A program made the position numbers and the translations under genes. DNA of 63,739 nucleotides, filler included, from Platydemus manokwari (taxonomy: Eukaryota): assembly GCA_037951405.1 (NCBI GenBank). It is 5 parts of 5 records of this genome, joined end to end, with 100 filler letters (N's around TTAATTAATTAA, not from the genome) between each part and the next. Parts side by side here need not be neighbours in the genome. Positions count along the whole stretch, not along the records: positions 1 to 14,111 come from JBBMOY011528078.1; 4 more parts are not named here. One strand, written 5' to 3'. Below the pieces are notes generated by a model. The model did not search any database and was not told where the DNA came from. It was given only the letters and a program-made list of their open reading frames with translations. Positions 888-40,599 of the stretch are shown piece by piece. Each line of letters starts with the position of its first letter. Position 1 is the first letter of the stretch.

Positions 888-3800
888 ATGAGTCGTTCAA
901 CAGTCCACGAAAGCAGCATGTCATATTCTCGCCAATTTACCAGAGCAGGTTCTCCAACAACGTTACGACTTGAGGTGATAAATATTCCAAGATTATGATG
1001 TTCCATTAATTATTTTTCATTTGTTTTTCAGTCACGACTTCGGGAATTGGAAGATATTTTGGATTTGGAACGAGATGCCAAAACTAGGGTTGGGAATTGT
1101 TGATATCGATTTGTTGGTTATTAATTATGAAATCTAGGCTGAAAGATTAGCTAATGAATACAGTTATCAAGTTGAAGCTTTGAGCGAACGTCTTGATGAA
1201 ATTGGTGGTTCCAGTAGTCATAATGTGAGAAATCAATACGAGGGGAAAATATTTTTCATTTAATAAAATCATTTCATTCAGACCGAACAACTGAAACGAA
1301 AAGAAATGGAAGTTTCCAAACTTCGCAAAGAATTGGAAACAGCTAATATGAATCTCGAGTCTGCTGAGCACAATTTGAAACGAAAACACCAAACAACGGT
1401 CATGGAATTTACTACGGAAATCGAAAATTTACAAAAACAAAAGGGAAAGTAAGAAAAGATATTTAATTTGAAATTCAGCTAGTTTTATATTTATTAAAGT
1501 CATTAAATCATTAAATTTTATTAAATTATTTAAATAAATATTAATAATAATTTAATAAATCATTATAAATATTTATTTAATCGATATTTTAAAATTTATT
1601 TAACATTAATAAATTATTATAATCAAGTAATAATAATAATAATAATTATTATTATTATATTAATGATTGTAAAAACTATTAGTCAATCTATAAATTAATT
1701 TGATTTATAGAGTCGAAAAAGACAAAAACCAATTGACCATTGAAATGGAAAACATCTATGGGCAGCTCGAAGGAGCTCTTAAGGCTAAAGTAAATTCCTA
1801 CAGTTTTGAAAAATTTTATTAAAATAATAATTTATCCAGCAAAATGCAGAATCAAAATTAGAAGGTTTCGAAAGTCAATTATCCAGACTGAAAAGCCTTA
1901 CCGATGATCTACAACGACAACTTAGTGACATAACCGGAGCAAAGAATCGATTACAAACGGAAAACTTTGATCTGGTAAAAACTGTCCAAGAATACGAGGT
2001 GCAAATAACGACTCTAACGAAATCGAGAAATTCTCTCCAAAATCAAGTCGATGATCTCAAGAAAAGTTTAGATGATGAAACAAGAGTTAGACATTGTTGT
2101 CTATCCTAATGGATAATCGTATTTGATTTTGTTTAGAGTCGTTTACATACTCAAGATCAATTACACAATCTCCAACAAGAATTCGATAATATTCACGCTA
2201 GGCTCGAAGAAGAAAGCGAACTAAATGGAAATTTAAAAGGCCAAATATCTAAACTACAAAACGAATTACAGTCTTTGAAAGGAAAACACGATAGAGAAAT
2301 GATGCAAAAAACCGAAGAAATTGAAGAAATAAAGTGAAATCGATTATAATAATATATTATTAATAATTTTTGAATACATCGATAGACGAAAACTCACCAT
2401 AAGAATCACTGAATTAGAAGACATTTCCGAACGGGAAAGAATGAGAGCCTCTAATTTGGAGAAAGTTAAACAGAAATTAAGCATTGAAATTAAAGAACTT
2501 CAACATGATGTCGACCAAGTAAGTCTGTCAATATGAATATAATAAAATTCATCAACCCATACGTTTATATTTTAATAAGTAATGTATTGACAATTTTTAT
2601 AAGTAGTATATTATTTTTCTGTAATACATTCAAACTATGAGTGGAAAAATCGTGAAATAATTAAATTTCAATTTAGTTGAGCGCTGAAAACCAAGAACTT
2701 GCCAGAAAACTTAAGGCAGCAGAATCTCAAATAAATGAACTCCAACGTCGCATCGATGAACTAGGCATCGAGGTATCTAATTTGCAATCTGCTAATAATC
2801 AGCTATCAGACGATAACATGAGATTGAAAGCCCAAAACAATGACCTTATAGATAAAAATGCAAACTTGGATAGAGAGAACAAATCTCTTGCCGGTACTCG
2901 TTTAGTACTGTTAGTATAATTTTAATGATTTCTTCAAGACCAACTTCGTGAAGCCAAGAATGGATTGAGAGATGCCAACAAGCGCATTGGAGATTTAGAA
3001 GCTTTAAAATCCCAACTTGAAGCTGAGCGAGATAATTTAGCCAGTGCTTTGGCAGACACAGAAGACGCATTGAAAGAAATGGAACAGAAATATAACCAGG
3101 CTCATGATTCATTGGTAAGATTAAAGGCCGAAATGGAACAAAGATTAAGAGAAAAGGATGATGAACTAGACAGTTTAAGGTTATTGATAAAAAAACATGA
3201 AATATATTAATCCTTGCTTTTAACAGGAAGAGCACTTCAAGAACAATTGAAGAACTGTCAGTTACCATAACAGAAATGGAAAGCAAACACCGAAACGAGT
3301 TGTCTAAACTCAAAAAGCGATATGAAAGCTCGATTTTGGAATTGGAATTGCAATTGGATGCACTCAACAAAGCTAATGCTAAATTTATGAAAGAAAATAA
3401 GGATTTGGCCCAAAGAGTCAAAGAATTGGAACTCACTTTGGAAGAAGAAAGAAAAGCAAGAGAAGCAGTTGAGACAAGTCTACAAGTAAATTGATCAAAT
3501 CGAATCACATGCTTTGTTAATGATTAATTTTAGTTGACCGAAAGAAAGAGGATCCAAGTTCAAATGGAATTGGAAGAAACAGTTACAATTCTAGAAACTA
3601 CAACTAGAGCAAAGAAAGCTGCTGAAAACGAAGCTACTGAAGCAAATAATCGATGTGGAGAACTTAATCTACAAGTTAATAGTTTGACTCAGGATAAGCG
3701 ACGATTGGAAGGTGATATAGCAGCCATGCACACTGATTTAGATGATGCAGTTAATGGCCGACAAGCAAGTTTTAAATATTAATTTCATTACTGTTTTCTA

Positions 3801-4847
3801 AGAGATGATAATAAGTGCTTGACTTATAATTTTCATCAGTTATACTTTACAAATTGTAAGCCACAATTATTTGATAAAGCATTATATCTAATCAAATTAT
3901 TTAAACAAATTCATATTTTTAATAAAAATTCGGAATTAAATCTTATCAATTTCGATTAATTTTAAAATCCTCACACAAATTAGTCTCTGATGCACCTAAT
4001 GGAAGTGTTCATTCCAATTATTCTTATTCTTAAAGATTGATTTACTCACATTAAACATACGAAATCATGACAGTTACCTGAGAAATATTGAATATATAAT
4101 ATTTTAAAGTAAAAAGCCATAAGATAATTTTCATATTAATTAGGCCGCCGAAGACCGAGCAAATAGACTCAATACAGAAGTAGCTCGACTTGCAGACGAA
4201 TTAAGACAAGAACAAGATAATTACAGACAGGCAGAATCATTAAGAAAGCAATTGGAAGTCGAAGTTCGAGAAATAACAGTAAAGCTTGAGGAAGCAGAAG
4301 CTTTTGCCACAAGAGAAGGCCGAAGAATGGTGCAAAAATTACAGGTTTCAGATATAGATTTGATGATATATTCATTGTAATATATTTCAAACGACAGGCA
4401 AGAGTGAGAGAATTGGAGTCAGATATGGAAGCTGAAGCTCGTCGTGCCAAAGATAGTGCAGCCCAAGCAAGGAAATTTGAGAGACAGTGGAAAGAATCCC
4501 AACAACAAGCCGATGATGACAGACGTATGGTATTGGAATTGCAGGATTTATTGGAGAAAACACAAATGAAAATGACAACCTACAAACGACAAGTTGAAGA
4601 ACTAGTAAGTTTAAAAAACAGAAAAGGATTCTTTAAACACCTTAAATTTCAGGAAGAAGTAGCTTCAATAACAATGAGCAAATACCGCAAGGCTCAACAA
4701 TCGATTGAGGAAGCAGAACATCGGGCTGATATGGTCGAAAGATCCATGACAATGAGACACACTTCTGGACCTGGAATTCGATCGATTTCAGTTACAAGAG
4801 AAGTTAACACTAGCTTGAGAGGAAACAGATCCACTAGTATTTTGTGA
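888..4847 (+). CDS. Prm: Paramyosin, complete 15-exon gene
   Basis: Manual splicing gives [29 protein letters not shown]|[19 protein letters not shown]|[21 protein letters not shown]... through [35 protein letters not shown]|AAEDRA and [11 protein letters not shown]|ARVRELE to [12 protein letters not shown]. This is colinear with flatworm (schistosome-type) paramyosin. Approximate exons: 888-974, 1032-1088, 1138-1224, 1282-1448, 1711-1788, 1840-2084, 2137-2333, 2385-2518, 2677-2893, 2939-3179, 3227-3485, 3534-3764, 4144-4344, 4398-4604, 4653-4847. AATAAA lies near 4939. Confidence 0.96.
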
Positions 4848-6314
4848 AGACAATAGTCATTTACCTCTAGCTTGAACCTGCCTTGCTAGCTGATTTATCT
4901 AACTGTCTGTGGTATCATTTACCGATACCAATAGATTAATAAATGCATGTGTATTTCACTGTTTGTACTTCTGTCTTTTAATTTTCAGGCTCGCGAATCA
5001 ATATATTTTCTGTAATATTTCGAACTATTATTCGTGCATGTCTAACAATTTCAGATCTTTGAAATATGGTTTAAATTTTCGAGAACAAATGAGCAATAGG
5101 AAATTTTTTCAATATATTTTACAATGACGTCTTGCGATTTGTAATTTCTTTGATCACTCCATAAACGAATGATGAACTGATAATCATATATAGATATATG
5201 GAATCCTTGTGATTTAACCAAAGTAATATTTGGGGTTTTATCCAATTGCAAAATTTACCGGTTGTTTGTTATCTTTTGATTAATTTAATCCGAGGATATC
5301 CTATAACTAAGCGACCAATAAAGTAATTTGGAGGCAGACATTGTTTAACTGTAGAAAAGGAGATAGATCAACGAAAAAATGTAAATATTCAATTCATTAT
5401 CGATTATCAATGCTATTATTTGATAATTAATGACGGGGAAGTTTCTACTTTGAAATATTTATAAAAGCTTTTAATTCAGGCTATTGTTCTTACAAATTAA
5501 CCTTTCCAAATAAAAATTATGTGATTGGCGATAAAAAATGAAAGGTCATAAATGTAAATTGCTACTTGAAAATTGGGCTTTTACGAAATACAACGAGAAA
5601 GATATTTCCATTTTACATTTACAGAGTACATTTTTCTTTTATTTTTTTCTCAGAATCGCAACATTACAAGGGCCTGTGAAAGTATGGCCTCTCGTGCCTT
5701 CTTTTTAATTGGCTGCTAGACACTAATTGAACTGCTTGTTGGTCTTTTCCTTTTGCTGTTCAAATATTCATCATAGGAATCTAATCTATAGGCTCTAAAA
5801 TGTCAAAATTATCATTCATTCGATTTATTAAGCCCTGCATTTTTATCGATCACGCAGTTTGCTCATTTATATCTTCTTCAATCATTATCCTACTCATAGC
5901 TTCAATAACTTATCTTACCAGTTGTAGCAATTCATTATTCTGATTTTGTCGATCTTCCTCAGTTGTTTGATTTATTTTATAGTGGGCCGGATTTTCTTAG
6001 AGTGGTTCCATTTTTTCATTCAGCGTTGCGATATATTTTCACCAGAATTTCCATAGCTTCTCTTCAAAAATTTTATGGTCCAGTGAATGGATTTTCCATA
6101 TTTTCTGAGAATATTTTGTCATTTCTCTCTCTCTCTCTTAATCAAGGTAGATCGGCCCATGTGAGTATGTACGTACTTGTTGCTGTCTAAGTCTTATTTT
6201 ACTTGTGTATAGATATTCTGAGCAATCAAAATTGTTGTCCTATAATTGATATTCTAAGGCTTGGTGAATTCTTTAGAGAGCCATTATTTCACTGTTATTT
6301 TTTCGCTGCCTGAA

Positions 6315-9060
6315 TGGAGTATTAAGCAATTTATTAAACCAAAATATTTGCCGCTCATCTTTGACAGTATTTTTTACGACATCTCAAGAAAATAGCTCCA
6401 GCAAGCAGAACTGTACAGGTTTAAGTGATTAGGCCAAGTATCAATCAACCCGCTCCAGAGACCAGTCTAAAGAAACAAATAGGAGAAAGAAAATTCCAGC
6501 ACGAAACCTCCACGAGTTAGAAGAGTTTTTCTGATTTTAAACTAAAAATTATTTTGAACCTTATATTTTCTTAGCTTGATTTTCGCCAGAACTAGATTAA
6601 ATTGATTTTTGATCCTATATAAAAAGCTGGAAATCAGTTGAAGACAATGAAAAAATTTGACGCAAGCAACTAGAAGTCAAAACAATCAGACCAAACAAAC
6701 CAAAAACTTAAGAAAATTCAATTTTCTTGCTAGCAGTGTTCTGGCAGCAACTGAAAGTACTTTTGAAAGTATAATCAAATCGAACGTATACCGGCATTCA
6801 AAAGGATTTGGGGCACAAAGCACCCTGACTCAAAGAGATCTTTTATCATGAAAATTCTATTTGTTTTGTTCAACAATGAGTTTCCTTCAAACCTTCCGTG
6901 TAGTGGTTAGAATTTTATCAATTGTAGACGAGTTGACGAAGTTCGCAAATGAGAAGATCAACCAGAGCCAATATCGCAAGACTTGGATTGTTTTTAAGCC
7001 AAGATCCGTAAGAATCAAGAATGAATTGACTAACCTGAAATCCCGAGAGAAACCCGATCGTTCCATGCATAGACTTTTGTCCTAGCTCACAAAATATGTA
7101 GCTCGATTAAATGATGGCGAACCATCAGAGAAGAACAGTTCGAAATATAAAGATTTTTAAGAATTCAAGTTTCTCAGTCTTTTTCTCATCACGAAGTCGT
7201 AGTTAGTTCACTTCTCAATTCCGGATTGTTACAATAATAGCCGCACTTACTAGGGTTGAAAGTCAAATGGACCTTAGAAGCCAAGTCAAATATCCTACCT
7301 AACCTATCAGCAATCCCCGCTGCGTATGCCGAAATAATAACTAAGTCATCTGCATAGGGTAACATGAAGAATTCCATCTCAGACAATGTGAGAGGACGTG
7401 GAAAATTATCACAACATTTAACATTAAAGTAAAAAACAAGACAGGACAGAATCATAGACAAGGAACACCCTTGTTTCACACCCTTAACAACCTTAATCGA
7501 CGGAGTTATTATTCCTGCACAGTGTTTAGTAGTTGAAACATTTTCATGAAGTTCTTAAGCAAATTAATTTTACCAGAGGCACAATCACTCTTTGCAAGAG
7601 TTCATGAGTTAACCATCCTCTGAAAGTAGTACTTTCTAATTCTCAGACATTAAATGGTCACAAGTAATCCAGCGAAGAATTCTATTGTTCAGAATCATAC
7701 AAAAGATTCTGTAGGACGTGTCCATCATCGCAATTGGTTGTCAAGATGAAACTAAATGAGTTTGACCATCTTTGAGTGATTTCAGAATAAGACTAGTCTT
7801 AAACCTCTTCCATTGACCCGGCTACACTCTTTCGATATAATAAGATTATAGAGTTTATAAAGAAAAACAAAATGTGAGTCAATCTCGTACCAATCAACAA
7901 ACAAAAGATTATCATTTCCAGGAGCGGAGTTACTTGATTTTTTAAATGCATTAAAAATTTACTCAATAGTAATTGAATCCTTTGTAAAGTTATCCTCAGA
8001 ATAAGGCAAGACTATATTCAAATCAGGAAAAGGCAGTAGGAAATCATAGGTGAAATGGTTCGTAATTTCCTCTATATTAGACAAAGAAGTGGGAGTCGAT
8101 GATGGAAGAATACGCTTCACCACCTTTGGCATAATATTATATTCCTTCCTAAGTTCAAAGACCTATCTAATGTGTTTTTCCCAATAATTTAATAAATAAG
8201 ACTTATGTTCACTTATATTGGCAATAAAAGCAAGCCAATGGTCATTGTTCCAATGGATAACCCAATGTCAGATGTTCTTATGCTCCGAAACGGGAAATTA
8301 TCATATAATATATTCGTTTTCAAGTGAGTAATAGCAATAGCAGGTAGTGGGGGTATGAAAACTATTCCACTCTTACCCGACAATCTCAGGTGGATAAGAC
8401 CTTCAATCGCTGGTCTGCTTAGCAATTCAGAAATAAGATCTTCTTCCCCTAACGGAAACTTCATTAAAATTTCATCATCCAAAGACAGAGATTCAATTTA
8501 ACTTTTGGGTTAACACTTTGCGACAAATAATGCTGTTTGAAGTCAACAGTAACCACAAACTAACAATAACACAGAGTACCAGAACTAAAGATATCTGTAA
8601 CCTTTGTTTCTTTATAGGTGCAATATTTGTATAACAAAGTAAAGAAAGACTTTTTAATTGCACACAAGGCACACCAAACCTTAGAGTCTGAACACGCTTC
8701 AAAAATCGTCGGACCTATAGTATTCGTATCAGATATAGTAATAATAACTATATTAGAAACCAGTATTAAATCAGAGGTTATAGTACCGCCAAGTGGTTTA
8801 TAATCAGTTAGTTCTTGAGAATCAAAAATAGATGGGGATGATGTAAAAGAATCATCACTGTAAAAACCAAATAAATCTGTACTCTATTAAAAGTGTTGGC
8901 AATTATATAATCATCTTCTTTCCATTAGATAGATCGACGTCGTGTATATAAACGCCACATGTCGTCGAAAAAGGGATATTAGCATAGTCAAATGGTAACA
9001 TTGCTTCATCAATTAGGTTATCAAGTAGAGATTCATAAAGTTTGTCATCAAAATCATTCA
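6315..9060 (-). mobile_element. Degenerate non-LTR retrotransposon (RLE-type, NeSL/Utopia-like): RT domain and flanks
   Basis: Minus-strand RT motifs with stops and frameshifts: SAPGND, AMMDTSYRIFCMILNNRILRW, GVKQGCSLSMIL, LPYADDLVIIS and LTFNPSKC (ORF 7189-7479). Confidence 0.85.
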
Positions 9061-9074
9061 CAGCAATATATGAT

Positions 9075-9445
9075 TTATCTACAACTTTTGGTCATAGCTA
9101 TTAAGCTTTTTGGTTGTTCATTGCTCTGCATGATTCATTTGACAGTTCTTGATTCATAGATATCTTGGATCCCCATCAATTCTTCTATCATACTTTCTAA
9201 TGCTTGAATGTTGTCTTTCAAATCATAACCAACTATGATTTTCCCTTAAACATAGTGATTCACTTTTTGACAGGTTTCTTCGGCATCATAAGCATTTCTG
9301 AGATTGGTTTCATTTAATCAGCATTTGAGACAAACGTCATTCTCAAGAATTATTTGGCCTTTGTATCTTCTTAGACTGACTCATACAGGATTCTTTTTTC
9401 CGTAGAAATCGGTGATCATTTTTACATCGAGGTATATCATGCAGA
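9075..9445 (-). pseudogene. REXO4/ISG20-like DEDDh 3'-5' exonuclease remnant inside a mobile element
   Basis: A single frame reads MIYLDVKMITDFYGKKNPV*VSLRRYKGQIILENDVCLKC*LNETNLRNAYDAEETCQKVNHYV*GKIIVGYDLKDNIQAL...GIQDIYES...PKSLIAMT. It aligns by eye to REX4-family motifs LDCEMV, RVSIVN..G, SGI.PE.L and KGRILVGH.L.ND.K.L. Confidence 0.7.
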
Positions 9446-10599
9446 TTTTTCTCCTCCTGACCCGTTAGTGTTTGCAGCTTTCAATAACATGACAACTGTC
9501 GTTTAAAATTTTCCAATGGAATTCTCACTAGGCTGCCTGTGTTGAACTTTTTCGGTCTTCGATATTATTGACTTTCATAGAGATCAATTTCGACTTATTA
9601 CTTTCTTTCTCAGTTTTATTTTGAGTATGTTTTGGTTTTATCATCAGGACAGTTATCAAAAAGACTATGACTATTAAGTATATCCTACTTTATGGTTTGC
9701 ATTTCCGATTTTAACTTCTTTCTTCATTTTCCTTTATGATATTTATATTTAGGATGTATTTTTGGGTTTGTGTTGGTTGCATTCTTAAGGTTTCTTTTTT
9801 TTTACTTTAAATGATAGATATCTTCTTTCTTATATTTATTTCTGTGCACTATTGAAGGGTCTTTTTTCTTTTTCTTTTTGATAAACAGGTCGGTGTTTAC
9901 TACTTTTACAATGACATACGGTTCTTCATTTATCATTTGTAATTTTACGAATTTCCTTAGTTTGCTTCTGGGTCATAAACCCTTAGTTTATACTCTACTT
10001 TAAATTCATAATTACATGTCTTTTTATCATGATAATTCTTATGTTGTTTCTGTTTGAATTTAAGGTTTAATTGAGCTTGTCAGTATATGTATCATGATTT
10101 TTCGTACTGAGTCTATTGGCATTGATGCATCCATTAAATGCATTAGATAACGTGATAAATAGTCGGTTGATTCATTTATTACTATATTATAACCCAACGA
10201 GCTTAGTTTTTTGGTTTGTTTTTTATTTACGAAATTTGATAACATGATTTGAAGCATTAGATTGTCTCACTCAGCTAATGCATCGCTTGTGGTCAACATG
10301 GGGACGTAATGATTTTCTTTATTTTGAACATTCAGTGACTTCTCTTATGAAATTTCTTAATTAGTCTTGTCTCCTATCAGTTTTATCTTCTTCTCGTTCC
10401 TCTTTTATCAATATGCAATATGTCCCCCTACTCAATTTTTGGTTTATCATATTTTTGTATATTTTGTTTAAATTTTCCTTCTTATTTTTTTCTTTCTGAA
10501 TTGCATTCACTTCAAGATAATTTTCAGGGTTTTATAATTAATAACATGATTTTATTCGTAATGTCTGTAAGTCCTAATATAATTCTTTATGTTTTCCTA

Positions 10600-10825
10600 T
10601 TAAATTCAATCTTCTTAATACTACAAATTATGCTTTTTCTATTACTTTGAACATGTGATCTATCTTAATACTTCCCATTATCAGACTAAATATCACTTTC
10701 CCTACTGTTATTATAGATGCTCCTGTTGCTCTGGTTAATGTATCATTAACTGTTTCTATTTTTCCCATCTATAGATGCCTTTACATTTCTTACATTTATT
10801 TGCACAGCTATTACTGGTCTTTTTA
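10600..10825 (-). pseudogene. Retropepsin-like (retroviral aspartic protease) remnant
   Basis: KRPVIAVQINVRNVKASIDG resembles RP.I.V.ING..VKALIDTGA. After an internal deletion or frameshift it continues LTRATGASIITVGKVIFSLIMGSIKIDHMFKV, which resembles the flap and C-terminal strands. Confidence 0.6.
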
Positions 10826-11159
10826 AAGCATAATTTGCACAATTCTTACTTAATATAATTGAAGTTGTATGTTCAGATATAACGGTTTATTTTACCCTTC
10901 TTCTCATGATAATTTCTTTCTTTCCACAGTTTCTCTTAATTGCATTTTTGCTTGTAGATCTTTTTATACAAACACCAGCTTTATTTCTTTTTGCTGTTGA
11001 TGGTGATTGGTAAAATTCCTATGGGTATGCATGGGTTTTTCCCTTAACCGGTTGATGCATAGCTTGCGGTTGTATTAGTTGCGGTGGTATTTTAAAATAA
11101 TAATCTCTTGGTTTAAACAATTGTATGTATGTATGTATGTAATATTTCTGGCACTTTAC

Positions 11160-12860
11160 TTATATCAGATGTCTTGCTGTTAGTGTGAATATGAAACACA
11201 TCGGAATATATCCTTTAATGTCTTTGCGAAGATGTTTGAAGAGAGTATATTTTTATCAATCCCGCTATGAATTATATTCAATTCATAGGAAAAACGAAAT
11301 CACTTGTCCTATTTCTTGAAAAATTCCATAAAAACTATAGAAAATGCCTTTTATTGCCTTCTCAGAATGGTCTGTGAATAGTAATGCCTCATAGTGGAAT
11401 GATCCATCTAAACTTCTTTGCAACACCTTATGTACCATGTTTCTTATGACCTTTTCTCTTTCAAACGGGAATAACATGTGTTTTCTTGCTTTTTCTATGT
11501 CGTCAGTTGCATATATCCAATTATTATTCATATTCATAATTGGTTTAAAGGCTAAATTTCTTGCCGGTCCATTTGCTTTTAGTGTTTTTGCATCACTTCG
11601 AGGTTTCTTATCATCCATTCATATCCATCCTCCATTATCTGAGAGAAATACATAATCCATTACATTTGAACAAGTGTCTCTAGGCTGAGCTTTGTAATAA
11701 TATTGTTAATATGATTCCCCTAACTGGTTACAATAATATTTTTTGGTTGTTATATATAATTGGTATCTCTCTGAAACAATGCTCGTGTTTCAGTACTACT
11801 AGGTTAATTATTTTCTTGCACTTAAATGTGTAGATTACTTCTCCTACTACTCGAGTAAATGTTTCTTTTTCTTCTAATATTATTAGTGCTACTAACCCCG
11901 GCTTTGTTATTGCTGTGGCCTATTTGGTCTTTAACACCTCGACTTATCTTGCAGTCATTTAATATAAGATCCATCCTTGGGCTAAATAGTAGAAATAGCC
12001 GAGTTTGTTATTAAAGCACTGTACGAATTTTATATCCAGTTTTTTTTAACTTTCTTCTTTGCATTCTTATCTGATTTTTCTTCGTAATAAACCACTATAA
12101 CCATTTAAGCACTACTCTTATCTTGGCTGTTATGTATGGATCTCATTGCGCTTTTTCCTTCTTCACCCATGTATATTGTTGGTGTTTATTTCATGCTCAT
12201 TTTAAATCTTCCCCTAATACTATCGGTTAAATAACTCTCCACAAGCTTCGTCACTTTAAATATTTTTCCATTTACTACGTGCTCTCACTTTCTTAGTTTG
12301 AATATTAAATGTAACTCGAAAATTCTTTAATTCTTTGAGGTAATGTCTTAATTCTACAACATCTGCTAATGTTTTATCACAAACTTGATATTTTTCTCTT
12401 TAGAATTATCCTCCTCATCCAGCCAGTCTTGCGTGTTCTATTGAATGTCTAGTGATTCTCTTTACCAATATCATCGCATATCCTTGTAATGTATAATATA
12501 TACTTTTTAAAATGTTAGTTTACATTTTATTTCTGTTGGCATTTCTAGCATTGGTGCCATGTTGGTTCTAATATTGCTGTGTATGCTCCTGATGGCCATG
12601 AAGAATAATTTTTTAACTCCTGATACATTAATTTGTAATCTCTGATTTTTTCAAACAGAAATTCTGACTTTTGGTCCACGTACATTTCCTTAGCTATGAA
12701 TTTGCCTCTGGTTATTCATTTTTATCTAACAATGAATATTTTTGTTCCCAATGTGGTTTCCCACAATCATATTCATCAATTCCTGCATCTACTCCTTCAA
12801 TCAATCCTACTATATACATGATAAGTAATATCTTAACTATATTGGTAAATTTAGATTTTT
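11160..12860 (-). pseudogene. Chuvirus-like (Jingchuvirales-type) envelope glycoprotein, degraded
   Basis: Signal-like KILLIMYIVGLIEG is followed by YDCGKPHWEQKYSLLDKNE. Later motifs are KPGLVALIILEEKETFTRVVGEVIYTFKCKKIINLVVLKHEHCFREIPIIYNNQKILL*P and WIYATDDIEKARKHMLFPFEREKVIRNMV, then hydrophobic FYSFYGIFQEIGQVISFFL and YTLFKHLRKDIKGYIPMCFIFTLTARHLI. Motif order matches chuviral G (YDC..SLLD; GEV...KC..C..E.P; GIY..D....R.H..FP.E; TM). Confidence 0.75.
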
Positions 12861-14009
12861 GCTGAGATTTTTTCTTTTCTAATTGTTTTTTTCCTTTTGA
12901 ACAACGAGTTTTCCATTTTCTATCATTTGTTCTAACATTGATTGAGCTAATTTTCTTCATTATTGATTTGATTAATTTCATTTTCATATCAATTTGGTAT
13001 TAATTCAATTCGGTTATTTTATTATTCATTTACTTTATTGTTGTTTACAGTGTTTTTAACATTTTACCGGTCGTTTTCTCTTCATTTTTTATATTCATAA
13101 CTTCCTTAGTCGTTTCTTTGTCAGTTATCTTATTGCTTATTCTGTTTATTTCTTTTCTGTATATAGTCATGCAATGCTCTAATGATTTTATATGGGACTT
13201 TTCATATGTATGTACGGATTTGGCCTTACCACTATGTGCTTGTAGATACCGTTTAATTTTCGCCTGTACTTCTTCTTTTGATTAAATTCTTTCATGGCCT
13301 GTGCATACATTTGTATTTTTTGAGGCTGATATTTCTTCAATAAGTGCTTGTGCTCTATATTTCATTCTTCATTTTACTTTTTCTTCCAAACCAGCATCTT
13401 TCGGTGGTATACCTTTTTCATTTGATATTATAAGGTAATCATTTATTATGATCTTAATTTTGATTTTACTTTTAATTCCTAGTAGCCTTCATCTAGGGGT
13501 CTTAGTAGGTGTTCTTCTTTAAATCCAGTTTCTTTTTACAACTTATCGTCTCTTTTCTCTTGTTCCTCATCTATGTCTTGTATTTGTTCTGCTTGTTATT
13601 TAATTTCTCCATTGGTATCATAGTTTAAGGCTATTAGTTAAAAAGACAATAATAGTAAAATCAAGAAGGTGCAAATAAATAAGAACTGGTGTCCTAAAGT
13701 TAAATAAATTTGAAAATCAATTAATCAAGAAATTGATGAATCGAAAAAAGTTCATAAATTTGATAAATTAAATTCTGCATTGATCGTTGATAAACTTGAT
13801 ATTAATTCCAAAAAGGTGTTGAGAAGAATTTTGGATTAATTAGATAGGAAAATGCGCAGCTCAAATAAAAGTAATTTATTAGAAAGATTGAATGAGTAGG
13901 CAAACAAAAAAGTAATAGTGCGATTAAATGCACTAATGAAATTGAATATACTAGCACCGATAATGGAATAGGAAATAGTTCCACTAAGGAAAATTACGCT
14001 AATAGTTTT

Positions 14010-14111
14010 GAAGTAGAAGAAGACGAAGAAGAATTAGAAGAAGACGAAGAAGAAGTAGAAGAAGACGAAGAAGAAGTAGAAGAAGACGAAGAAGAAGTAG
14101 AAGAAGACGAA
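14010..14111 (+). repeat. 21-nt tandem repeat (GAAGTAGAAGAAGACGAAGAA)n encoding poly-acidic EVEEDEE, running into an assembly gap
   Basis: About 5 copies are directly visible and truncated by Ns at 14112. Confidence 0.9.
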
Positions 14112-14211
14112 NNNNNNNNNNNNNNNNNNNNNNNNNNNNNNNNNNNNNNNNNNNNTTAATTAATTAANNNNNNNNNNNNNNNNNNNNNNNNNNNNNNNNN
14201 NNNNNNNNNNN
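14112..14211. other. Artificial scaffold gap with six-frame-stop linker (also 24666-24765, 39909-40008, 54731-54830)
   Basis: An identical N44-TTAATTAATTAA-N44 structure occurs four times. Confidence 0.97.
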
Positions 14212-15228
14212 AGAACTCTAATTTTTATAAATTCTAGTATACCTCATAGACTAATATCACAGACCTCTTAAATTACACATTTTGCAATTGATCAATTTTA
14301 TCAACATTTAGAGTAGTATTATATACCGGTTTTTTGGTGTCACTTGCCACCTGAATGCCGATACGAATGTAGTGAACTTACCACGCAAATTCGAAATCAT
14401 GGATGACCACCGATAATAATATGACATATTAATTTAGTTATGTCATTATTTTCTCTCTGTTCATTAAGAAAGAAAATTTTAGCTGGTCTCATAGTTTTAG
14501 GAGGAATGATAATATTATTATTTAAAAAGAAATCTTCAGGATTAATATAAATGTTAAAAAATTATAAATAAAGTTAGGAATAGAAGTTAAATATTTATAT
14601 ATAGTTTTGTAATCTATTACTTCTAAATTCTTATTTTTATAGAATTAAAAAAAGAGTTTCATCAAGATTATCAAATAACGAAAGCTAAAGGGATTTATCC
14701 ATATAATTATATAAACTCATATGAAATTTTAAATCAAACAGAATTACCATCAATTGAAAGCTTTTATTCGAGGAAAACATTAGAAGGAATTACAAACGAA
14801 GAATATATGAGAGCAAAACGTAAAAAATTTATGGGATTATACAATCTTGTATTTAAAACAAGATATAAATGGAATAATTTTGGAATGGAATAATATTTTT
14901 AATTCTACTACTTTTCGCTTTATGTTTATTAGACTTTTCATGAGCTTTAAAAGCTTGAATTGTCTTAAAACTTTAATTACAAATTCGGCATTGGTGGCTC
15001 ATTTTTTAAGCTTTATTTTTTAATTAGAACTCTAATTTTTATAAATTCTAGTATACCTCATAGACTAATATCACAGACCTCTTAAATTACACATTTTGCA
15101 ATCGATCAATTTTATCAACATTTAGAGTAGTATTATATACCGGTTTTTTGGTGTCACTTGCCACCTGAATCCCGATACGAATGTAGTGAACTTACCACGT
15201 AAATTCGAAATCATGGATGACCACCGAT
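14212..15228. repeat. About 200-bp direct repeat (14212-14414 and 15026-15228)
   Basis: agaactctaatttttataaattctagtatacc...ggatgaccaccgat occurs twice, with three substitutions seen by eye. Confidence 0.9.
14642..14830 (+). pseudogene. Protein-primed DNA polymerase B fragment (Polinton/Maverick-like)
   Basis: ELKKEFHQDYQITKAKGIYPYNYINSYEILNQTELPSIESFYSRKTLEGITNEEYMRAK matches the KG.YPY.Y...LP...FYS.L...I..E.Y motif of pPolB. Confidence 0.75.
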
Positions 15229-16112
15229 TTGTTTAATTTTTTCTGCTGCATTTCGATGATGAACTGAGATAATACAAAAATATTTTATCTACTTCTTGAT
15301 AACGCTCTTAGTCATAGATTGAAGAAATGTTTTTAGAACATTGAAGTTATAATGCTTCCGAAGAACAAAACTGCTCATCTTCAACCCATGGATGCAGGTG
15401 TAATAAAAAATTTAAATCATTATTGCAGAAAAAAGTTAGTAGTTGATTACATGAACTCGCTTGATCAAACAAAAGTCTTGATTATTAAACTTAAGAAAGC
15501 CATATTGATACTCCATGAAGTTTGGGAAGATGTAAAAGAAGAAAACACCAAAAATTTTTTCAAATAAGTTATTTTAGGTACTCACGGATCTTATGCTGAA
15601 AAAAGCTTGCCATCAGTTCCCGTTCTTGGGACACATAAGAATGAGCTTGACCAAATAATGGTTGAAGAGGATATGATCCAAACAGAAGAAGTCATTGATG
15701 ATTATGAAATCATCTGCATTGTGTAAAGAAGGATACACTTTTGAAGATGTTATACTTTGTGCTGAACATCGTCAAATCTATGACACTTACAACTTAAGTC
15801 CAAGCAATTTGTTCCATGCAATTGAAATTGTCATCTAAGCAAGTTGTTCTTCAAACAGTTTTACTAAAAAAAATAACCAATAAAAATTTAAAAGAAGTCA
15901 AAGTCTATTTACAAAAATTTATTCAAAAGTAAATTCTACAGAAAACTTTTGATGATTTTTTAAATAAATAATTTTCTTCTTCTTAATAACTTCATCATTA
16001 ATATGGTGATCATATAGATTTTATTAATTATTTATATTATTCATTATTTGAATTAATTCACAATGTAAAAGGAAACGACTTCTAATATTTCGGATTAAAA
16101 GGGTTGACAGTA
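15229..16112 (+). mobile_element. pogo/Tigger-family (DDE_1) transposase remnant with 3' TIR
   Basis: LLLDNALSH...IMLPKNKTAHLQPMDAGVIKNL..YCRKKLV...AILILHEVWEDV (ORF 15352-15567). TIR-like CGGATTAAAAGGGTTGACAG followed by TA at 16091-16112. Confidence 0.85.
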
Positions 16113-19100
16113 TACTAATATATTTTGTGTAACGTGAGATAGACATTTTCGTATTTTGGTTATTTCTTAATCACTTTTAACTTCTTAATAATTTCTATCA
16201 TCAATGAATTTCTTAATTACCAGCAATATAAACATTTTCTTCGTCAATGTCGTTTTGACAATTTTCTCAGACAATGGATATTTTTAACTCATCGCTTCGC
16301 CGTTGAGATGAGTCTTTTCATGCTGTTTGTCTTGTCTCACTCATATTTTTTGGGAATAAATTATGTTATCTAAATATTCCTGCATAGATAACTGTTCATT
16401 AAATGTTACAAAAAATAATGACTTTGCACCGTAGAACCCTTATTTTATCATTTAAGCATTTACTTGCAAACACAATCAAACATGCATGTCAATGTACAAA
16501 TGGTTTAAATGGAAAATTATAATTCGAAACAGTAACATAGTCACTTAACAACATACACATAGGGATTGACAATTCCCGATTATACAAGATTCAATAAGTC
16601 ATATAGAAACTTGAGAAATTAAAGATCAAATTAAAATGTGATACAAGCGTGAGAAAAAATTACACACAAATATCAAGTATAAATATCTATGTAAAGATGT
16701 CCAACGACCGGTTGGAAATCAAGATTTAGATTGTAATTTTGTGGAATTTTAGAGGCACTTTTATTACGAAAATACAGATTGCAAACTTCGAATCTTTATA
16801 ACGTCAACACAACATAATTTAATATTTTCCGCCGCAGTTTCAAGGATTTTTTATGAAATTATTTTAAAAGATAAAAGATAAGCTGAATATGTGCATGATT
16901 CACGGATAAAATATTAATAAAATCTTAACTAAAATCGAAACCATCAAAATAGTAAACATTATAATATCCATAGGTTTTATTTGTAATTTAGAAAAAACAG
17001 TAAATTATAATAATTATCATGAGTGATTAGAAATACATAAAGTTAATTTCCAAAAAATTCAATGCCAAAAAGAATGGTTTTAATAATACAGTTGAAGATC
17101 ACAAGTTCATTTTTAATAAATAAATTTTCTTTTTATTTGAATATTAGAATACTATAATGATATGTTTTAATATTTACCTGCAATCTTGCAGATTTGCTCC
17201 TTTTTCTTCAAAACAGTCTGCAAACTAGTTGATTAGCAAATTCTCTGCTATTTAACATGTCATTGCAGTACCTCGATTTTTGTTGCCTTTTATTGGAGTG
17301 CACTAAATAATGATCAAATTTAATTTATGAATTGATATTTCGGATGCATCTAACTGGTTACTGGCATATGTATTCATCGTGTCTAAGTATATCGACCCCT
17401 TTAATTGTTATTTTTAGGTGTTTGGCTTGTTTATGTCACACAATTAATAATGTCCTTACCGAATCTTCAATCATGACATCATTATTACAATTATTATAAT
17501 TCTTCATAAAAAAATAAATCACTCTAAATATTTATTAAATAATACGAGATACATAATTGAATACACTTATTTTATTCACTAAATCACATATTGTTTAAAT
17601 AAAAATTAATCACTACATTAAATTGCAGATAAAAAAAATCTAAATACAAAAATAAATGTAAATGTCATTCGAACTGAGCCGGTTAACACAATGATTATAA
17701 TTATTCGATTTATATATTATTAAAATTATTGCCATTATTTTTATTTTATTCCACTTTACATTACCTCATATTTGGAAATGTATATTGATACAAAAATAAA
17801 AGCTAATAATGTGAGTGCCGAATAAAAATATGTCCAAATTTTGGAATTGTCATCAACTAAAATCAGTGAGTATTAATGATATTATTTACAATTTATATGT
17901 AATTACCAATTATTACATAACATCTAGATTTATTCATATAAGGCCTATCACCACAAATGACACAGAACTTTTTATCAACTAATGTTCTGTCATCATTGAT
18001 GATTATGACTAAATTGGTCAAGAGCGAGTAAGCTTCTCTAGAAATTCCAACGACTCTAAATATTATTTTGGAAAATTTCGCAAATTCCGGTGTGAATCGG
18101 CACATTATTTGATGAGGCTCCAAAATTCGTATTTCACGTTCCAAAGGTGTAATCGTAACATTGATTTTTCCTTCTATAGTTATCAAATAGAATGAATATA
18201 AATTCACTAAATTTTTGTAGATCATTATACTAAAATTCTATTTTTATTTTGACAAACTTAGGATATATTATATGGTGAGCACATTTATAAATATATTCAA
18301 TTGATTTTGAAATGAAATTTCAATTATATAGAAGGATAATAGAAACATAAAGATTCATTCTATTGATCTATATATATGCCAATGTGATGAACCTTTTTAT
18401 TAAACATGATTGAAAATTATTTTTAAATAACTTTAAAATAATCATTGAGATAGATAAATGAAAATGTTATTACGATAATTTAATTACCAAAAGGTTTGTA
18501 GCATTTTGTTCCATTTGTTGGAATATATTCGTGACCACAAACAACACAAATTATATCTCGAGTCTTTCTTTCAGGACCACCAATAGAAATTTCCCTATAA
18601 GAAATATTTCTATAATCCGTTGAATTAATTCTGATAAATCGTATATTTCGCAAATGAAATACCAATTCTACTGGATATATTTCACATACAATTTCCATCG
18701 CTTCTTCTAAGACATAGGAATCAATATTAGGAGTGATTAAAAATATAATTTTTGCGGCTAATGTAATAAACATTATTACGAAATTAAAATAAATGAACCA
18801 ACAAACCATATATAATCAAACGAATATCTTGGCTCATCTTGATTGTTGGTATTGTGCAACGAATGAGATAGGTTCCATTGGAAATATTTTTGCTCAATTG
18901 TATGCCATCAGTCACAAATTTGATATTATTATAGCCTGGAGAAAAACATTTAGCTTGATAAATACGTCCAAGTTTGTTAGGGTCAGTGAAATACAATTTA
19001 ACAGTCATATTACTATCGGCAAAATAGATATTTTGTTTTGGATGAATTTCAAGTACAAAGTGAACTAATTATAGCAATTATTTTTATAATCTTAAATTAA

Positions 19101-19879
19101 ATAAAATTAACGTTTAAAATGATAACAACTTGTCACATTCACCCCATATGTACTCGTGCAAGTAAAGCACACACATCTCTCGCTGTAGATAAGACTATTC
19201 GTTAAAAATATCAACTTGCGACTAAAAGCATCGTAAGTTGTGTCTTTGGTATAAAAGTGCAAGGACTCCTTTGGTAAATAATCGGGATATATTGCGCAAA
19301 ATAATATCATAAATTCTTCCATCATAAAGATTTCAGCCTTTGGCCAAATATTCAATTTGATTTGGCCTTCTAAATTTTCAATATTTTTACTTAATTTAAA
19401 TTATATTATCTATAGTATCATATATTGTTGATAATAACATCAAATATTACTGTAGACGAATAAAGTCAATTCCTGAAAACTACTTGAATGCTCTATGTAG
19501 CAATGAAATGTATAATTCCCAGTTATAAGATTGTTAGGAAATGTAATGTTGCCTTTATTTATTATTGGTTGGATTTTTACATTATCCTTGTTAAAAAATA
19601 TACACATGCTTTGAATACTGACATTGTATTTTGGATGAGTATAATATGTTACCAAAACTTCATTTTCATAATCGATACAGTAAAATTGATATTTGGGAGT
19701 ATAATGAAAAGATATGTTTGCTAAACAATTATCAATTATGAATATATTTTCATTTATTTCTAATATATTTAAAATATTTTCGCTTCAATTCAAATATAGT
19801 AATTAACTTAATCAGATACCAAGTTATGAAGTTCAGGTTTAATTATTTTTCTTGAAGAAACTTATAGGTTATAATACTG

Positions 19880-21300
19880 ATATCGGTTGTTATAAGGAAA
19901 TAGTAGAATGTTATTAATATTTATAAATTCAAAAGTTATACAAATACATATATAAATTTGTAACTTGAAATTTTCGATAAAAACATTTCCGCTGATAATT
20001 GCATTTATCATCATGTTCAGTTCTTCATATTTATCCAATTCTAAAAACTTGCCTTGTTCCACTAAACATAAAACTTTAGTTTTCGTTACAGAATACATTG
20101 CTTCTTTCACAGTCCACCTTTATATTACGTCTTTGTTGTGGGTTTTGATGATTTATAGAACATTGCTCACAACACGAAAATTGTGATATTGCACCTGCGT
20201 TGATGTGTTCTTTGCCTTTACCATATTCTATTTCCATTTCAATTATTTCCAGCTCTACTTTCCATATACAATATTGTGATGTATTTGGAGAATCCTAATT
20301 CAATATTCATTTCAGAGCTACGAGATCAATTCTGACAATAAATTCCTTACTATATAGGTAATGCTTAAATCAATTAAAAAACACATAGAAAACTAGCAAT
20401 TATTTTCTTGTTAAACAATATTTTTGCTGCTCTTTTGTCAATATTCTTGATGCATACGTTATCACTCGTTCTTCACCGTTTTGTATTTGAGAAAGCACGG
20501 TTTCTACGATACCGAAAGTTGCATCAATATCCAAAACATATTTCCCTTATTTGCATGGTAAACTTGATGGTGAAATTCATGATGTTTTCAATTTCTGAAA
20601 CGATGTGGTTGCGTAAATCATTCTGCTCAAATTTATTCTCTTTCTTCAGTGATTAGTATAGTGCTTGTGTAATACCAGCAAAATCATTTATAAAATCATT
20701 TATAATGACCACATAATCCTGTAGTTCCTTGATATATTGAGGTTTTAACCAATTTTTAATTTCCCCAAGCATGTCTTCATCTGTTCGTATGTCGTTTTTG
20801 TAAATCACATGTTGATTGTCTCGAATACTCTACATATTTCATTACACGAAGAATCTAATTCTTCTAGCTTTTAATATCTTCCTTTATATCTCAATTATAA
20901 CTATTTTTATATCTCCATTATATCAACTTTTATATCTTTTTCTAATATCTTCTACAACTTCTATATATTTTCCTTAAATCTCCTTTTTTAGTTCTTAATA
21001 GCTTACTCCTTTTTAACCACAATATTCAGTCTTTGATCGTTTCAGAATCGAATCCTGATGCGTGGTCGCCACGTGAGCCGTACTTTTATTTAAAACCATA
21101 CATTAAAAATGAATTAAAAAGTCAAGACATCATAAATCTATTTATTTACAAATATTTAAACAAATTATTTAACTTTATATAAATATAATTTATATTAAAT
21201 TAGAATTAAATTAAAATTAAATTAGAATCAAAATTTTAATTCATATAAAATTTAATTTATAAAAAATTTAATTCAGATAAAATTATAGTTATTTGAAGTA
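19880..21300 (-). mobile_element. Ty3/Gypsy remnant with LTR end, PBS, gag-like region and RNase H C-terminus
   Basis: PBS-like TGGCGACCACG at 21071-21061 follows an AATAAA-containing LTR-like end. KMEIEYGKGKEHINAGAISQ (about 20190-20245) resembles the RNase H end FEIEYRKGKEN..ADALSR. Confidence 0.65.
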
Positions 21301-21329
21301 TCACACAGTGTTCATTGACTGTTTTTCCA

Positions 21330-23150
21330 AATGTCTAAATATCATCAAGATAAATTACACAGTTTGTCCAATTTCCAGACTTCTATACGACAGTCACAAG
21401 TTTCTGAAAAGTCGTAGGCATTCAACATAATTAAATTAAACTGAAATGCTGTTTTTTCTTTTGCTTCTTCCTCTAATTCAACTTGATGATATCCATTCAC
21501 CAAAAATATTGTTGAAAAATATTTTGCACATTGTACGGCATCGAATATTTTGTCGAGAATATGTATAGGGAAAATTGGTATGGATGTATCTTCTTTTAGT
21601 TTCCTAAAATTTAATTTCATCCTAATCGTTAGATTCTTTTTAAAATTTCCCGATGAATTATTTGGACTGATAACGTTTGATTTCAACATTCCCCCTATTA
21701 GGTGTTTAATTTCTTCTTCTAATCCTATTGTAAGTTTAAGGTGTTTGACAGCTATTGGTTGATAAGTGTTTGTTTTTCTAAGACTGGACCTGTACTAAAA
21801 CTATTTCTGTATTTTGATAGAATACTTATAAAATTATTCTTATCCTCCGGATTCAGTATATCATCTAATTTCTGTTCATTATTTTTAATATTTTATTTCA
21901 TTTTCTTTTTCTTTTTTCGGAACATAAATTATTTAACTCAACTGAATTCTTATTTCCGTCCTTAATTAATATATCCCTTCTACTTTCCCATCCTTATTCA
22001 TATAACGTATTCCAATAAAACGTTCTAGGAATAGTTATGGCACTACATGAAAATAATTCTGTTGCACAAATTACAGTTTGTAAATAATTCTGTTCTGAAG
22101 ACTTTATTATTTTCACATCTAATCCTGTTAGGAGTTCTCCATTTTTGATTGAATAATCCTTTAGCATTAGTACATTGACTAATTCTTAGCTTATGTATCT
22201 CCAATTTCTCATTTTCAACTTTACAATCGACTATTGGTCTGTTTTATGCCTTTTCTAGTATTCGTTTCTTTATTACCATATCTGTTTTTGCAAAAATTCT
22301 GGTTAGTTTAGCTACTTCCTCATTAACAAACTGTACATAATGGCCCTCTATCGAATTCAATTGAATGTGCCCAGACTTTCTTGGCTTAACTTGTTAGATA
22401 TACTACAATTTTTTTCAGAATGAGTATCTAAGATCGAGATATTGTCCTCTTATAATGTGATGCTTTTTTCAAATATTTGACATCATTGACGTTTGTACGA
22501 CAAAATCTTTGTATATGGGAATCACCACATCGAAAACATTCAATTGAATTACTAAAGCGAGAAAATTGTTCTTTTTGTTTACACTTGAAACAAGTTACAT
22601 CCTTCATTGATTTCTCTTTTCGAAGAGTTTTGGCGCTCTTTTAATTTGGCAATGTATTGCTTGAGCCTTAAATCATCAGCCTTTAATCTCCAAATGATAT
22701 CCATTTCGTCTGATTTTACGTGTTTCAGATCCCAAGGCATATTCAAACATTTAAATTTTGGCTGTGATAAATCTGTTTCTTTCTTGATAAGTCTTACGGC
22801 TTCATCTAAATTCTTGGAGTTCCATTGCTTCAGCCCAAATTTATAGTCCTTATTAAGCTCTTCAATGAATATCTTCTTGGAAACCTGTTCCTTATTTTCA
22901 ATATTAATTCCAGTCACGGAAATTTCAACTATTTTTGAAAAGTCTTTGATAGACTCCGACTCGTAATTATAGATAACTCCCCTGTGCAACTTAAATCGGT
23001 TTTTACTTCTGACTTTACACCAAGATGTACATAATTTAATATAAATTTTCTTCTCTTCTTCAAATTTTTCTGCATTTGCATTGATTCTGCATATTCGTCA
23101 ACTGTTGAAAGAAATTCTTACACAATTTCACCATTAAAAAAGGTAGTTTC
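21330..23150 (-). mobile_element. Ty3/Gypsy remnant (gag, protease, RT N-terminal part)
   Basis: RT reads FPIHILDKIFDAVQCAKYFSTIFLVNGYHQVELEEEAKEKTAF (ORF 21345-21689). Protease-like RPIVDCKVEN lies near 22230, and ORF 22579-22989 is gag-like. Confidence 0.85.
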
Positions 23151-24807
23151 TTGAAAATTAATCAAACTATTTCTAAATCTACTCGTGACGCATATTGATA
23201 AAGAAATAGTAGACTAGTATTAAATTTTATTAATTCAAAGGTTATACAAACATAAAAGTATTTAAACAAATACGCATATAAATAACCTATTTTATATATT
23301 TTATCAATAAAATTAAAAATAATAAAAATATTGATAAATAAAAAATAAAACAATACGAACCAGTCAGATTGTAACACCTACTGATATTCATAATAATTGG
23401 ATAAGAGCAATGAAAACAAATTTTCCTATATATTAAATAAGTCAATTCTTTGATGAGAATTCCAAAATCGCTGATTTCATATTCCGAACTATTTATTCCA
23501 GTTATTATCAAATTGATGTTTGAAAATTCTACGAATATTGGCTTGTAAACACATTTAATGAAAGGATAGTACAAGTAATAAATATGCTCTTCATTGGGTG
23601 ATACTGAGGCCGTGAGTTCATCATCTAAACATAAAATTAGTAAAGTCAACCTTGTTTTATGTTTTAATCAGTTTGACAGAATATTGATAACATCGGTCGA
23701 CATATCTCATCAAATTTTTACAAAAACATTAAAATTATTCATTCACAGATGAATATTCATTTTATCGTTGTTAGTTGTTATTATGTAGCTATTACATATT
23801 GGAAAGTATATTATTACAGATTTATTTATAATTTAATAGGTAAGATAATATTAATTTGACCCATTGTAAATTTATTTATTAAAAAAATAATAAAAAAATA
23901 TTAAATACGTCATGAAAAATACATTGCATATGTAAAAATAAGGTAAAAAACAAATACAAAGTTAAATATTGTATTTTGTTATAGTTACACCAAACAATAA
24001 AATTAATTTATCAAAAAAGAAAATAAAATCATTAAAAATATTATTATAAATATTATTAATACTATTTTTTAATTTAAATATTATTTATTCAAAATTTATT
24101 GATAGCATATTAAATTTAATATTATTTATTTATTTATTTATTCAAAAAATCTTAACATTTTTATAAACATTTGATACGTTGGAACTTTGTTCTAATGTAC
24201 TTGGACGTCTGCAACGAAGCATGGTAATAAAAGCAGGGTAATTTGCAATATATACAAAAGTTTTCAGATTTTTCGTATAGAACCGTATTATTTTTAGATG
24301 TTCGATCAGAGATCTTTCATTTTAGTTGGCTCATTTTTTAATATAATTTTTATATTTTTTATGAATAAAAATTAGACTATTATCAGGACTTTCTAATAAC
24401 TACATTTAAAATAGATAAATTATATCCTTTATTTATCATTAAATAAAATTATAATATGTGATTACTTTTTACAAATGAAGTTATGTATTTAAAGTTTTTA
24501 GCGAATATTTAATAAGTAAATTCAAAGGACTTATGATGACCACATCTTAGACACTATATCATTTAACAGTATAATTAGTATTTGTGTGAAAATAAATTTG
24601 ATTAAGAGTAACCACTTTTAGCAAAAATTTAGCAAATAAGAAAATCTTATTATTGAAAAAGCAAANNNNNNNNNNNNNNNNNNNNNNNNNNNNNNNNNNN
24701 NNNNNNNNNTTAATTAATTAANNNNNNNNNNNNNNNNNNNNNNNNNNNNNNNNNNNNNNNNNNNNTTATGTTTAAATGATTTGGTAAAACAAAAACTTTA
24801 AACAACT

Positions 24808-39730: not shown

Positions 39731-40599
39731 TTATCACATGATTTTAAAATCAATCCAATCAAATTCGACACAATAAATATAAAATACATAAATATAAATA
39801 AATATAAAATGCAATCTACGTGTCGCATAACATCTAATCAACTATATAAAGAAAAATGGAGCCTGTTAAAATTTGGACTTCAATCTTTAGTCATTGTATA
39901 TATCCTTANNNNNNNNNNNNNNNNNNNNNNNNNNNNNNNNNNNNNNNNNNNNTTAATTAATTAANNNNNNNNNNNNNNNNNNNNNNNNNNNNNNNNNNNN
40001 NNNNNNNNTGACATTATATATATGCATAGTTTTATTGTCAATATTTCCCTTTTTAATGAAGGATTCAAGCTACAATGTTGCTGATACATCTCTACATTAT
40101 ATAAAAAACCGTGTTTTTTTACCATATTATATATATATATATATATTGCTTAATAAATAATAATTACATTCCTTCCTGCATGACTTATTGGCATGTAGAG
40201 CTATAATGTTAAATGCTTAAAATTATAAAATATATTATAAATTCTCTGATAAATGTCCACCGAAAGAAAAGGGTATCATCATGATGCATCGATAATGATA
40301 GAAAATTAATTCATATATAACCCTATTAAATCTGAACAGATTCAGTGAGATTTTAATTGACAAATTTCAGAGTTTAAAATTTTATTTTTTATATTTATTA
40401 ATATTTTTCTAAATGTTTATTTTTAGTTTATTAGTGATTATTTAGAAACAGTATTAATCAGCCTAGAATATGTGGGTACGCGCATTAAGAACTTTGAAAT
40501 AGTGTATGGTGTGTTGAAAATGATATTTAATGAGTAGTGAGACTCTATAATTTACAATTTTCACCGTTAAGATAACTATGGAAAACGATTATGTCATAC

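Follow-up and report, generated by a model that had tools for sequence, protein, structure and literature searches.

In the available part of PMC13524379 (Chary and Hayashi), the errantiviruses of Nematoda, Bryozoa and Platyhelminthes carry only envelope (env) proteins of the HSV/gB type, in the gene order GAG-ENV-POL, and its table lists nine flatworm elements from three species, six of them in Schmidtea mediterranea, at 1-215 copies. The same text links the chuvirus-like glycoprotein of mosquito BEL/Pao elements with gB-type proteins and favours an origin that is ancient. As to endogenous viral elements (EVEs), the accessible text of PMC10084718 describes six endogenisation events, in Malacostraca, Nematoda and Insecta, and none in flatworms; no flatworm EVE of the chuvirus glycoprotein (G) as such was found in the literature, judged by title or the start of the abstract. 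In planarians, the gypsy element Burro carries its env between gag and pol and in frame, as far as the available part of PMC6431247 goes, but that env is related to baculovirus/paramyxovirus F proteins and the inside of the element measures up to 25 kb, whereas the remnant described here is about 4.8 kb long and its env is predicted to be of class III. Burro was rejected as the carrier for its F-type env, and Troyka for having no env in the portion of PMC12440569 at hand.

The window, that is, the whole stretch of 63,739 nucleotides (filler included) of the Platydemus manokwari assembly GCA_037951405.1 that was analysed, contains at 11160-12860 on the minus strand the env remnant under study. 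Based on the analysis in this work, we consider it very probable that this stretch is the gB-type env of a GAG-ENV-POL Ty3/gypsy retrotransposon, in a copy that is dead and has undergone an internal deletion, and the fossil is taken as a retroelement env because broken integrase remains lie just downstream on the same strand. The initial annotation had suspected retroelement involvement, which the env position within a Ty3/gypsy remnant bears out; its stand-alone endogenous chuvirus gene is not supported, given that position and the lack of L or N in the window, and neither is an undescribed capture in flatworms, as GAG-ENV-POL elements with such an env are already published (PMC13524379, in the part available). 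The "ancient" origin that it proposed agrees with the view taken in that part of the paper. Like Smed_errantivirus_3 and the other GAG-ENV-POL errantiviruses of Platyhelminthes, the element has env before pol, a gB-type env predicted to be of class III and many copies; unlike them it is dead, is without reverse transcriptase (RT), RNase H and the front of the integrase, and is divergent in sequence from the published row.

All env motifs named in the initial annotation were found on the minus strand of 11160-12860, in the order given there. A signal-like hydrophobic segment (12840-12784; Kyte-Doolittle 19-mer mean 1.96) precedes the N-terminal motif YDC..SLLD (12771-12724), whose spacer is of nine residues and not of the eight reported; the GEV..C motif (11844-11818) and, after it, the C-F-R-E-I-P motif (from 11778) stand in the central env piece, and a WIYAT motif (from 11519) lies in the C-terminal env. 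The expected C-terminal hydrophobic segments exist too but are weak, with best 19-mers of 1.09 and 1.11 in hydropathy, and our own profile extends across the anchor region, with 15.5 bits. A chuviral-type order and spacing had been claimed; the order is kept and the GEV to CxxE spacing is 22, against 21-22 in intact relatives, but YDC to GEV takes 309 codons in the fossil versus 349-357 residues in eight of eight intact relatives. This distance being shorter than in the relatives, some 45 residues are missing from the env fossil.

Along the minus strand, the remnant is composed of the signal-like segment with YDC-x9-SLLD (12724..12840), which aligns to profile positions 1-43 at 24.6 bits and not above shuffles; a domain I-II remnant in several frames and with internal losses (12108..12715), whose four motif sites are ordered as in Smed_errantivirus_3; a central piece with the end of the long helix, GEV..C and CFREIP (11704..11971; own profile 333-420); and the C-terminal ectodomain, membrane-proximal region and likely transmembrane anchor (11198..11705; own profile 421-584). 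The copy is full of stops and frame changes, the longest unbroken piece being of 111 residues, and the present env copy yields no intact fusogen. In mosquitoes, domestication has been put forward for solo glycoproteins (PMC7642597, in the part available), and a host gene acting as fusogen or receptor blocker could be imagined here as well; against the same stops, frame changes and 111-residue limit, such a role is practically eliminated for the present copy, and its probability is close to nil.

The two longest unbroken env pieces, which are two of the 25 pieces scanned with Pfam, both match PF24664 (Monjiviricetes_fusion), at 11283-11618 within the C-terminal part (E 6.2e-10, profile 455-554) and at 11728-11919 within the central piece (E 1.2e-8, profile 351-409), and both exceed the gathering cut-off (38.1 and 33.9 bits versus 27). 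With Pfam on 2100-residue frames, the env was not detected at all. Two motif scans of viral contigs provided eight intact relatives (L001-L008), seven of which resemble negative-strand RNA viruses (L002 and L006 were checked: Mononeg_RNA_pol), while the eighth, L001, is a Ty3/gypsy element itself, with pol then env. The latter is an IMG/VR contig filed as viral that consists of a Ty3/gypsy pol and a PF24664 env, and it also bears a 471-residue ORF without Pfam family. A profile of the eight relatives scores 34.6, 30.0 and 25.6 bits on the C-half of the env, and nowhere else in the 1704 tiles of the window does it exceed 4.1 bits. A frame-tolerant alignment with a profile of 26 sequences, namely the eight relatives and 18 of 120 proteins that are close kin of an insect-type element and no help for placement, runs collinearly from 11971 to 11198 over positions 333-584 in four frame segments.

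The ectodomain of the L001 env was modelled with a pLDDT of 77 and a pTM of 0.45 (53-row alignment). Against the PDB, herpesvirus gB occupies all the rows shown (best E 1.5e-13, TM 0.35), and against BFVD the glycoproteins of chu-like viruses rank top. From this gB-like model of an intact relative and the BFVD match, the glycoprotein family is predicted to be class III, which would extend to the fossil by homology. The profile and structure check proposed with the initial annotation, once run, gave a significant PF24664 match and a fold of an intact relative that matches herpesvirus gB, and the chuvirus-type, class III-like fusogen family named there is upheld by the PF24664 scores above cut-off and the gB-like L001 env model. 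Identity of the fossil to viral G is only 24-39% over the best-conserved 63 residues. Weak negatives came from word-seeded protein searches with each unbroken env piece (0 of 89 and 0 of 11 candidates), from a related-locus search in viral contigs (0 of 9) and from a PDB sequence search with the env (no match), and a metagenome motif scan for the env returned one short contig with no context.

The N-half of the env, taken alone against the arthropod-weighted profile, scores 19.6 and stays within shuffles (mean 17.7, max 23.3, n=25). It shares four ordered motif sites (12574, 12393/12348, 12251 and 12185) with the domain I-II row of Smed_errantivirus_3 in the alignment rows of supplement 2 of PMC13524379 that are shown, rows that come without the Macrostomum and Prostheceraeus env, which may hold a closer relative. 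The spacings, fossil versus Smed_errantivirus_3, are 60 vs 62, 15 vs 15, 32 vs 52 and 22 vs 38 residues, and the two short ones fit the env length already found missing. Ungapped identity to that row, counted by hand, is 11/36 and 9/15; TPTIY occurs in two of the supplement rows available, and M follows it only in Smed_errantivirus_3, as in the fossil. In 200 shuffles the motif patterns recurred at rates of 0-0.01 per window for five patterns and 0.25 for one, rates that are optimistic because the motifs were chosen after viewing both sequences and the likeness was counted by hand. A retroelement env that goes back to a viral G captured separately, in the ancestry of this host lineage alone, and is not kin to the published planarian elements, could account for a likeness to published env that is only about 30% in one segment by hand count; the ordered motifs, two of whose spacings nearly equal those of Smed_errantivirus_3 (60 vs 62 and 15 vs 15), and the unusual gene order shared with the elements in the available part of PMC13524379 speak against it, and we regard it as very improbable.

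Upstream of the env, a coding remnant in gag position (12862..13700, minus strand) is in frame with the env signal segment from 13488. Over 12712-13488, the frame of the env signal contains six stops in 259 codons, compared with 31 and 32 in the other two frames; therefore, with so few stops in a frame running into the signal segment, the env once continued the upstream reading frame. The upstream piece gave no significant family in Pfam, in the atlas or with 37 gag-like queries, and no CCHC knuckle was found upstream of the env. On the plus strand, T exceeds A from about 8900 to about 13700 and the skew reverses on both sides, which marks out one minus-strand coding unit of about 4.8 kb, and within this single-skew stretch env, protease and integrase follow in that order on the same strand.

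These features bear on the alternative that the G mRNA of a negative-strand RNA virus (a jingchuvirus or related) was reverse-transcribed and then integrated next to a gypsy remnant with which it has nothing to do, which would make the locus a true non-retroviral EVE. Like the G of Jingchuvirales and Xinmoviridae (PF24664), the fossil matches the profile over 351-554 and keeps the motif order and most spacings, and this family-level homology to chuvirus and xinmovirus G, together with a chuvirus that Table 1 of PMC10084718 (in the part available) lists for a flatworm host, speaks for such an origin. Unlike viral G, it has a retroelement carrier and no L or N neighbours, and its N-half goes unrecognised by the viral profile yet matches a planarian retroelement env. 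In addition, the strand and skew are shared and the env-pol order is canonical, the signal segment continues the upstream frame, many diverged copies exist, and identity to viral G stays at the low level given above, so that an EVE is improbable. None of 17 non-G ORFs of seven RNA-virus loci, drawn from 27 long ORFs of L001-L008, matches the window at E<=0.05, and in the absence of L or N remains the locus is not counted as a chuvirus EVE.

Downstream of the env, a weak retropepsin-like protease remnant was delimited by eye at 10530..10820 (minus strand), with a profile match at 10762-10631. The 19-sequence protease profile gives 22.3 there, a score that none of 100 shuffles (max 20.9) and none of 56 other stretches reach, by a small margin; the same profile also did not rank the other gypsy element of the window. 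The C-terminal half of a Ty3/gypsy integrase with its GPY/F module follows in four collinear pieces (9859..10373, minus strand) and scores 66.4 over positions 1-194 of 196, far from the controls (shuffles max 23.4, 0 of 100 near; other window stretches max 20.5, 0 of 56 near). This profile was built from 49 of 57 long-enough C-halves (eight redundant ones removed), taken from 87 loci with a Ty3/gypsy-type integrase motif. Loci L025-L097 with this motif are 73 stretches in prokaryote genome bins, many of them in a few bins, suggesting that host DNA is present in those bins. Pfam on the short pol pieces (protease and single integrase pieces) gave 0 relevant of 20, and a phage tblastn search with an integrase piece gave no match.

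No RT or RNase H was found between protease and integrase with a pol profile of 25 sequences (of 28), which places RT and RNase H only in the other element, at 20150-21800. That second Ty3/gypsy remnant (20150-23100, minus strand) comprises a CCHC-like knuckle at 22538, RT and RNase H, and no env match lies beside it. From the protease to the middle of the integrase of the env-carrying element there are about 180 bases where some 2.6 kb are expected, and an internal deletion of RT, RNase H and the integrase front is therefore indicated. A BEL/Pao element such as Anakin, or a Copia element, was weighed as the carrier. Anakin and the insect Ty3/gypsy L001 resemble the fossil in holding the same glycoprotein family inside an LTR-type retroelement; L001, however, has pol before env where the fossil has env before pol, and Anakin, with its chuvirus-like G, is a BEL/Pao element (PMC7642597, in the part available). 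The occurrence of this glycoprotein in mosquito BEL/Pao elements (same part of PMC7642597), and a protease followed directly by an integrase without RT between them, which is the Copia order, would suit these carriers, but the integrase fits the Ty3/gypsy profile, the only one compared, along 194 of its 196 positions with the GPY/F tail among them, it starts in mid-core, as a deletion explains, and no RT of such kind follows, which leaves BEL/Pao or Copia extremely improbable.

An LTR pair was not found in 5000-14111, a 100-base gap beginning at 14112; the six published Schmidtea rows likewise list neither LTR nor primer site (PMC13524379, in the part available). As RT, RNase H and LTRs are absent from it, the copy is not counted as a complete errantivirus, and we infer that the remnant descends from one.

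Copies of the element were followed in contigs from one sequencing run that contains the stretch (share 0.95; probably the source sample), in which unique contigs have a depth of about 14 (13.9); no RNA data set was listed as containing it. One contig with zero differences spans 6442-11299 and thereby connects the end of the env with what is left of the pol. Summed over contigs at 80% likeness, the depth, which is not a copy number, reaches about 2000 in the env, about 1900 (1935) in the protease and about 375 (376) in the integrase, and it drops to about 14 between these parts. Many contigs match the env and pol parts at 80-95% likeness, and 94 of 114 contigs on 8900-11700 are under 90% alike to the window. 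The depth of env, protease and integrase is as would be expected of an old copy of a large repeat family. Among the contigs listed, none from other loci clearly bridges env and pol, and their linkage is seen in the present copy only.

On the 3′ side of the integrase, a possible remnant of a DEDDh (REX4/ISG20-like) 3′-5′ exonuclease lies at 9138..9464 (minus strand), a lead whose membership in the element is uncertain. The match of 9464-9138 to ISG20 is weak (E 0.49), its values against the exonuclease clusters of the atlas are 0.77-0.80, under 0.9, and its score in a profile test is reached by one shuffle in 100 and by one of the 110 other stretches. Contig depth there is near single copy, and the putative exonuclease may for this reason lie outside the amplified family. 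DEDDy exonucleases form a third ORF in rotifer LTR elements, according to the part of PMC5408684 available, and an exonuclease on such an element therefore has precedent; the word exonuclease does not occur in the main text of PMC13524379.

Other features were seen in the window. A non-LTR-type RT remnant at 7000-8100 on the minus strand (RVT_1, E 4.8e-7 for 7189-7554) abuts the 3′ end of the env-carrying element, another at 41622-42605 on the plus strand was recognised by eye only, and the plus strand of 2800-4850 bears 3′ exons of a host gene that resembles a myosin tail or paramyosin. Within the sequence, only the likeness to planarian elements points to a flatworm, a host that is consistent with it. 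The 100-base gaps at 14112-14211, 24666-24765, 39909-40008 and 54731-54830 contain in their middle a linker with stops in all frames and are artefacts, not repeats. Beside the first of them, a 203-base duplicate of 99% is present at 14212-14414 and 15026-15228, and a DDE_1 transposase remnant lies at 15170-15570. The plus-strand segment 14627-14893, for which Pfam gave no match, resembles the protein-primed DNA polymerase of Maverick/Polinton elements. Open pieces of 100-125 residues and similar make-up on the minus strand (17893-19784 and 23287-23667), three of which end in C-x2-C...C, resemble repeated exons of one extracellular protein, with no convincing Pfam family. No tRNA genes were found.

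The class III fusion of gB and the roles of the Ty3/gypsy pol domains are well established. In the parent element, the env would have been made together with the upstream region in gag position, would have entered the membrane through its signal segment, and may have formed a gB-like class III trimer that let particles fuse with other cells, while copying and integration of the element would have been the task of the pol. The present copy would have arrived by retrotransposition and then, as the 180-base gap suggests, would have lost RT, RNase H and the integrase front, and the stops and frameshifts seen in it would have accumulated.

More tentatively, we suggest that the copy could be what is left of a flatworm lineage of enveloped Ty3/gypsy elements that is undescribed and strongly amplified and has the gag-position region and a chuvirus-type class III env in one frame, with a DEDDh exonuclease behind the integrase; the same genome may still harbour younger copies. 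Elements of this general kind are already in print, and this one is dead; novelty would be confined to the possible exonuclease and the gag-env fusion. In conclusion, the locus is a further, divergent member of flatworm type among the Ty3/gypsy elements that carry an envelope, and it gives direct evidence that an env of this sort and chuvirus G score in one Pfam family. It also calls for caution: a fragment of chuvirus-like G in the genome of an invertebrate does not on its own document infection by a chuvirus. If the suggested lineage is real, it would provide a non-arthropod reference point for the derivation of chuvirus G from a retroelement env, or the reverse.
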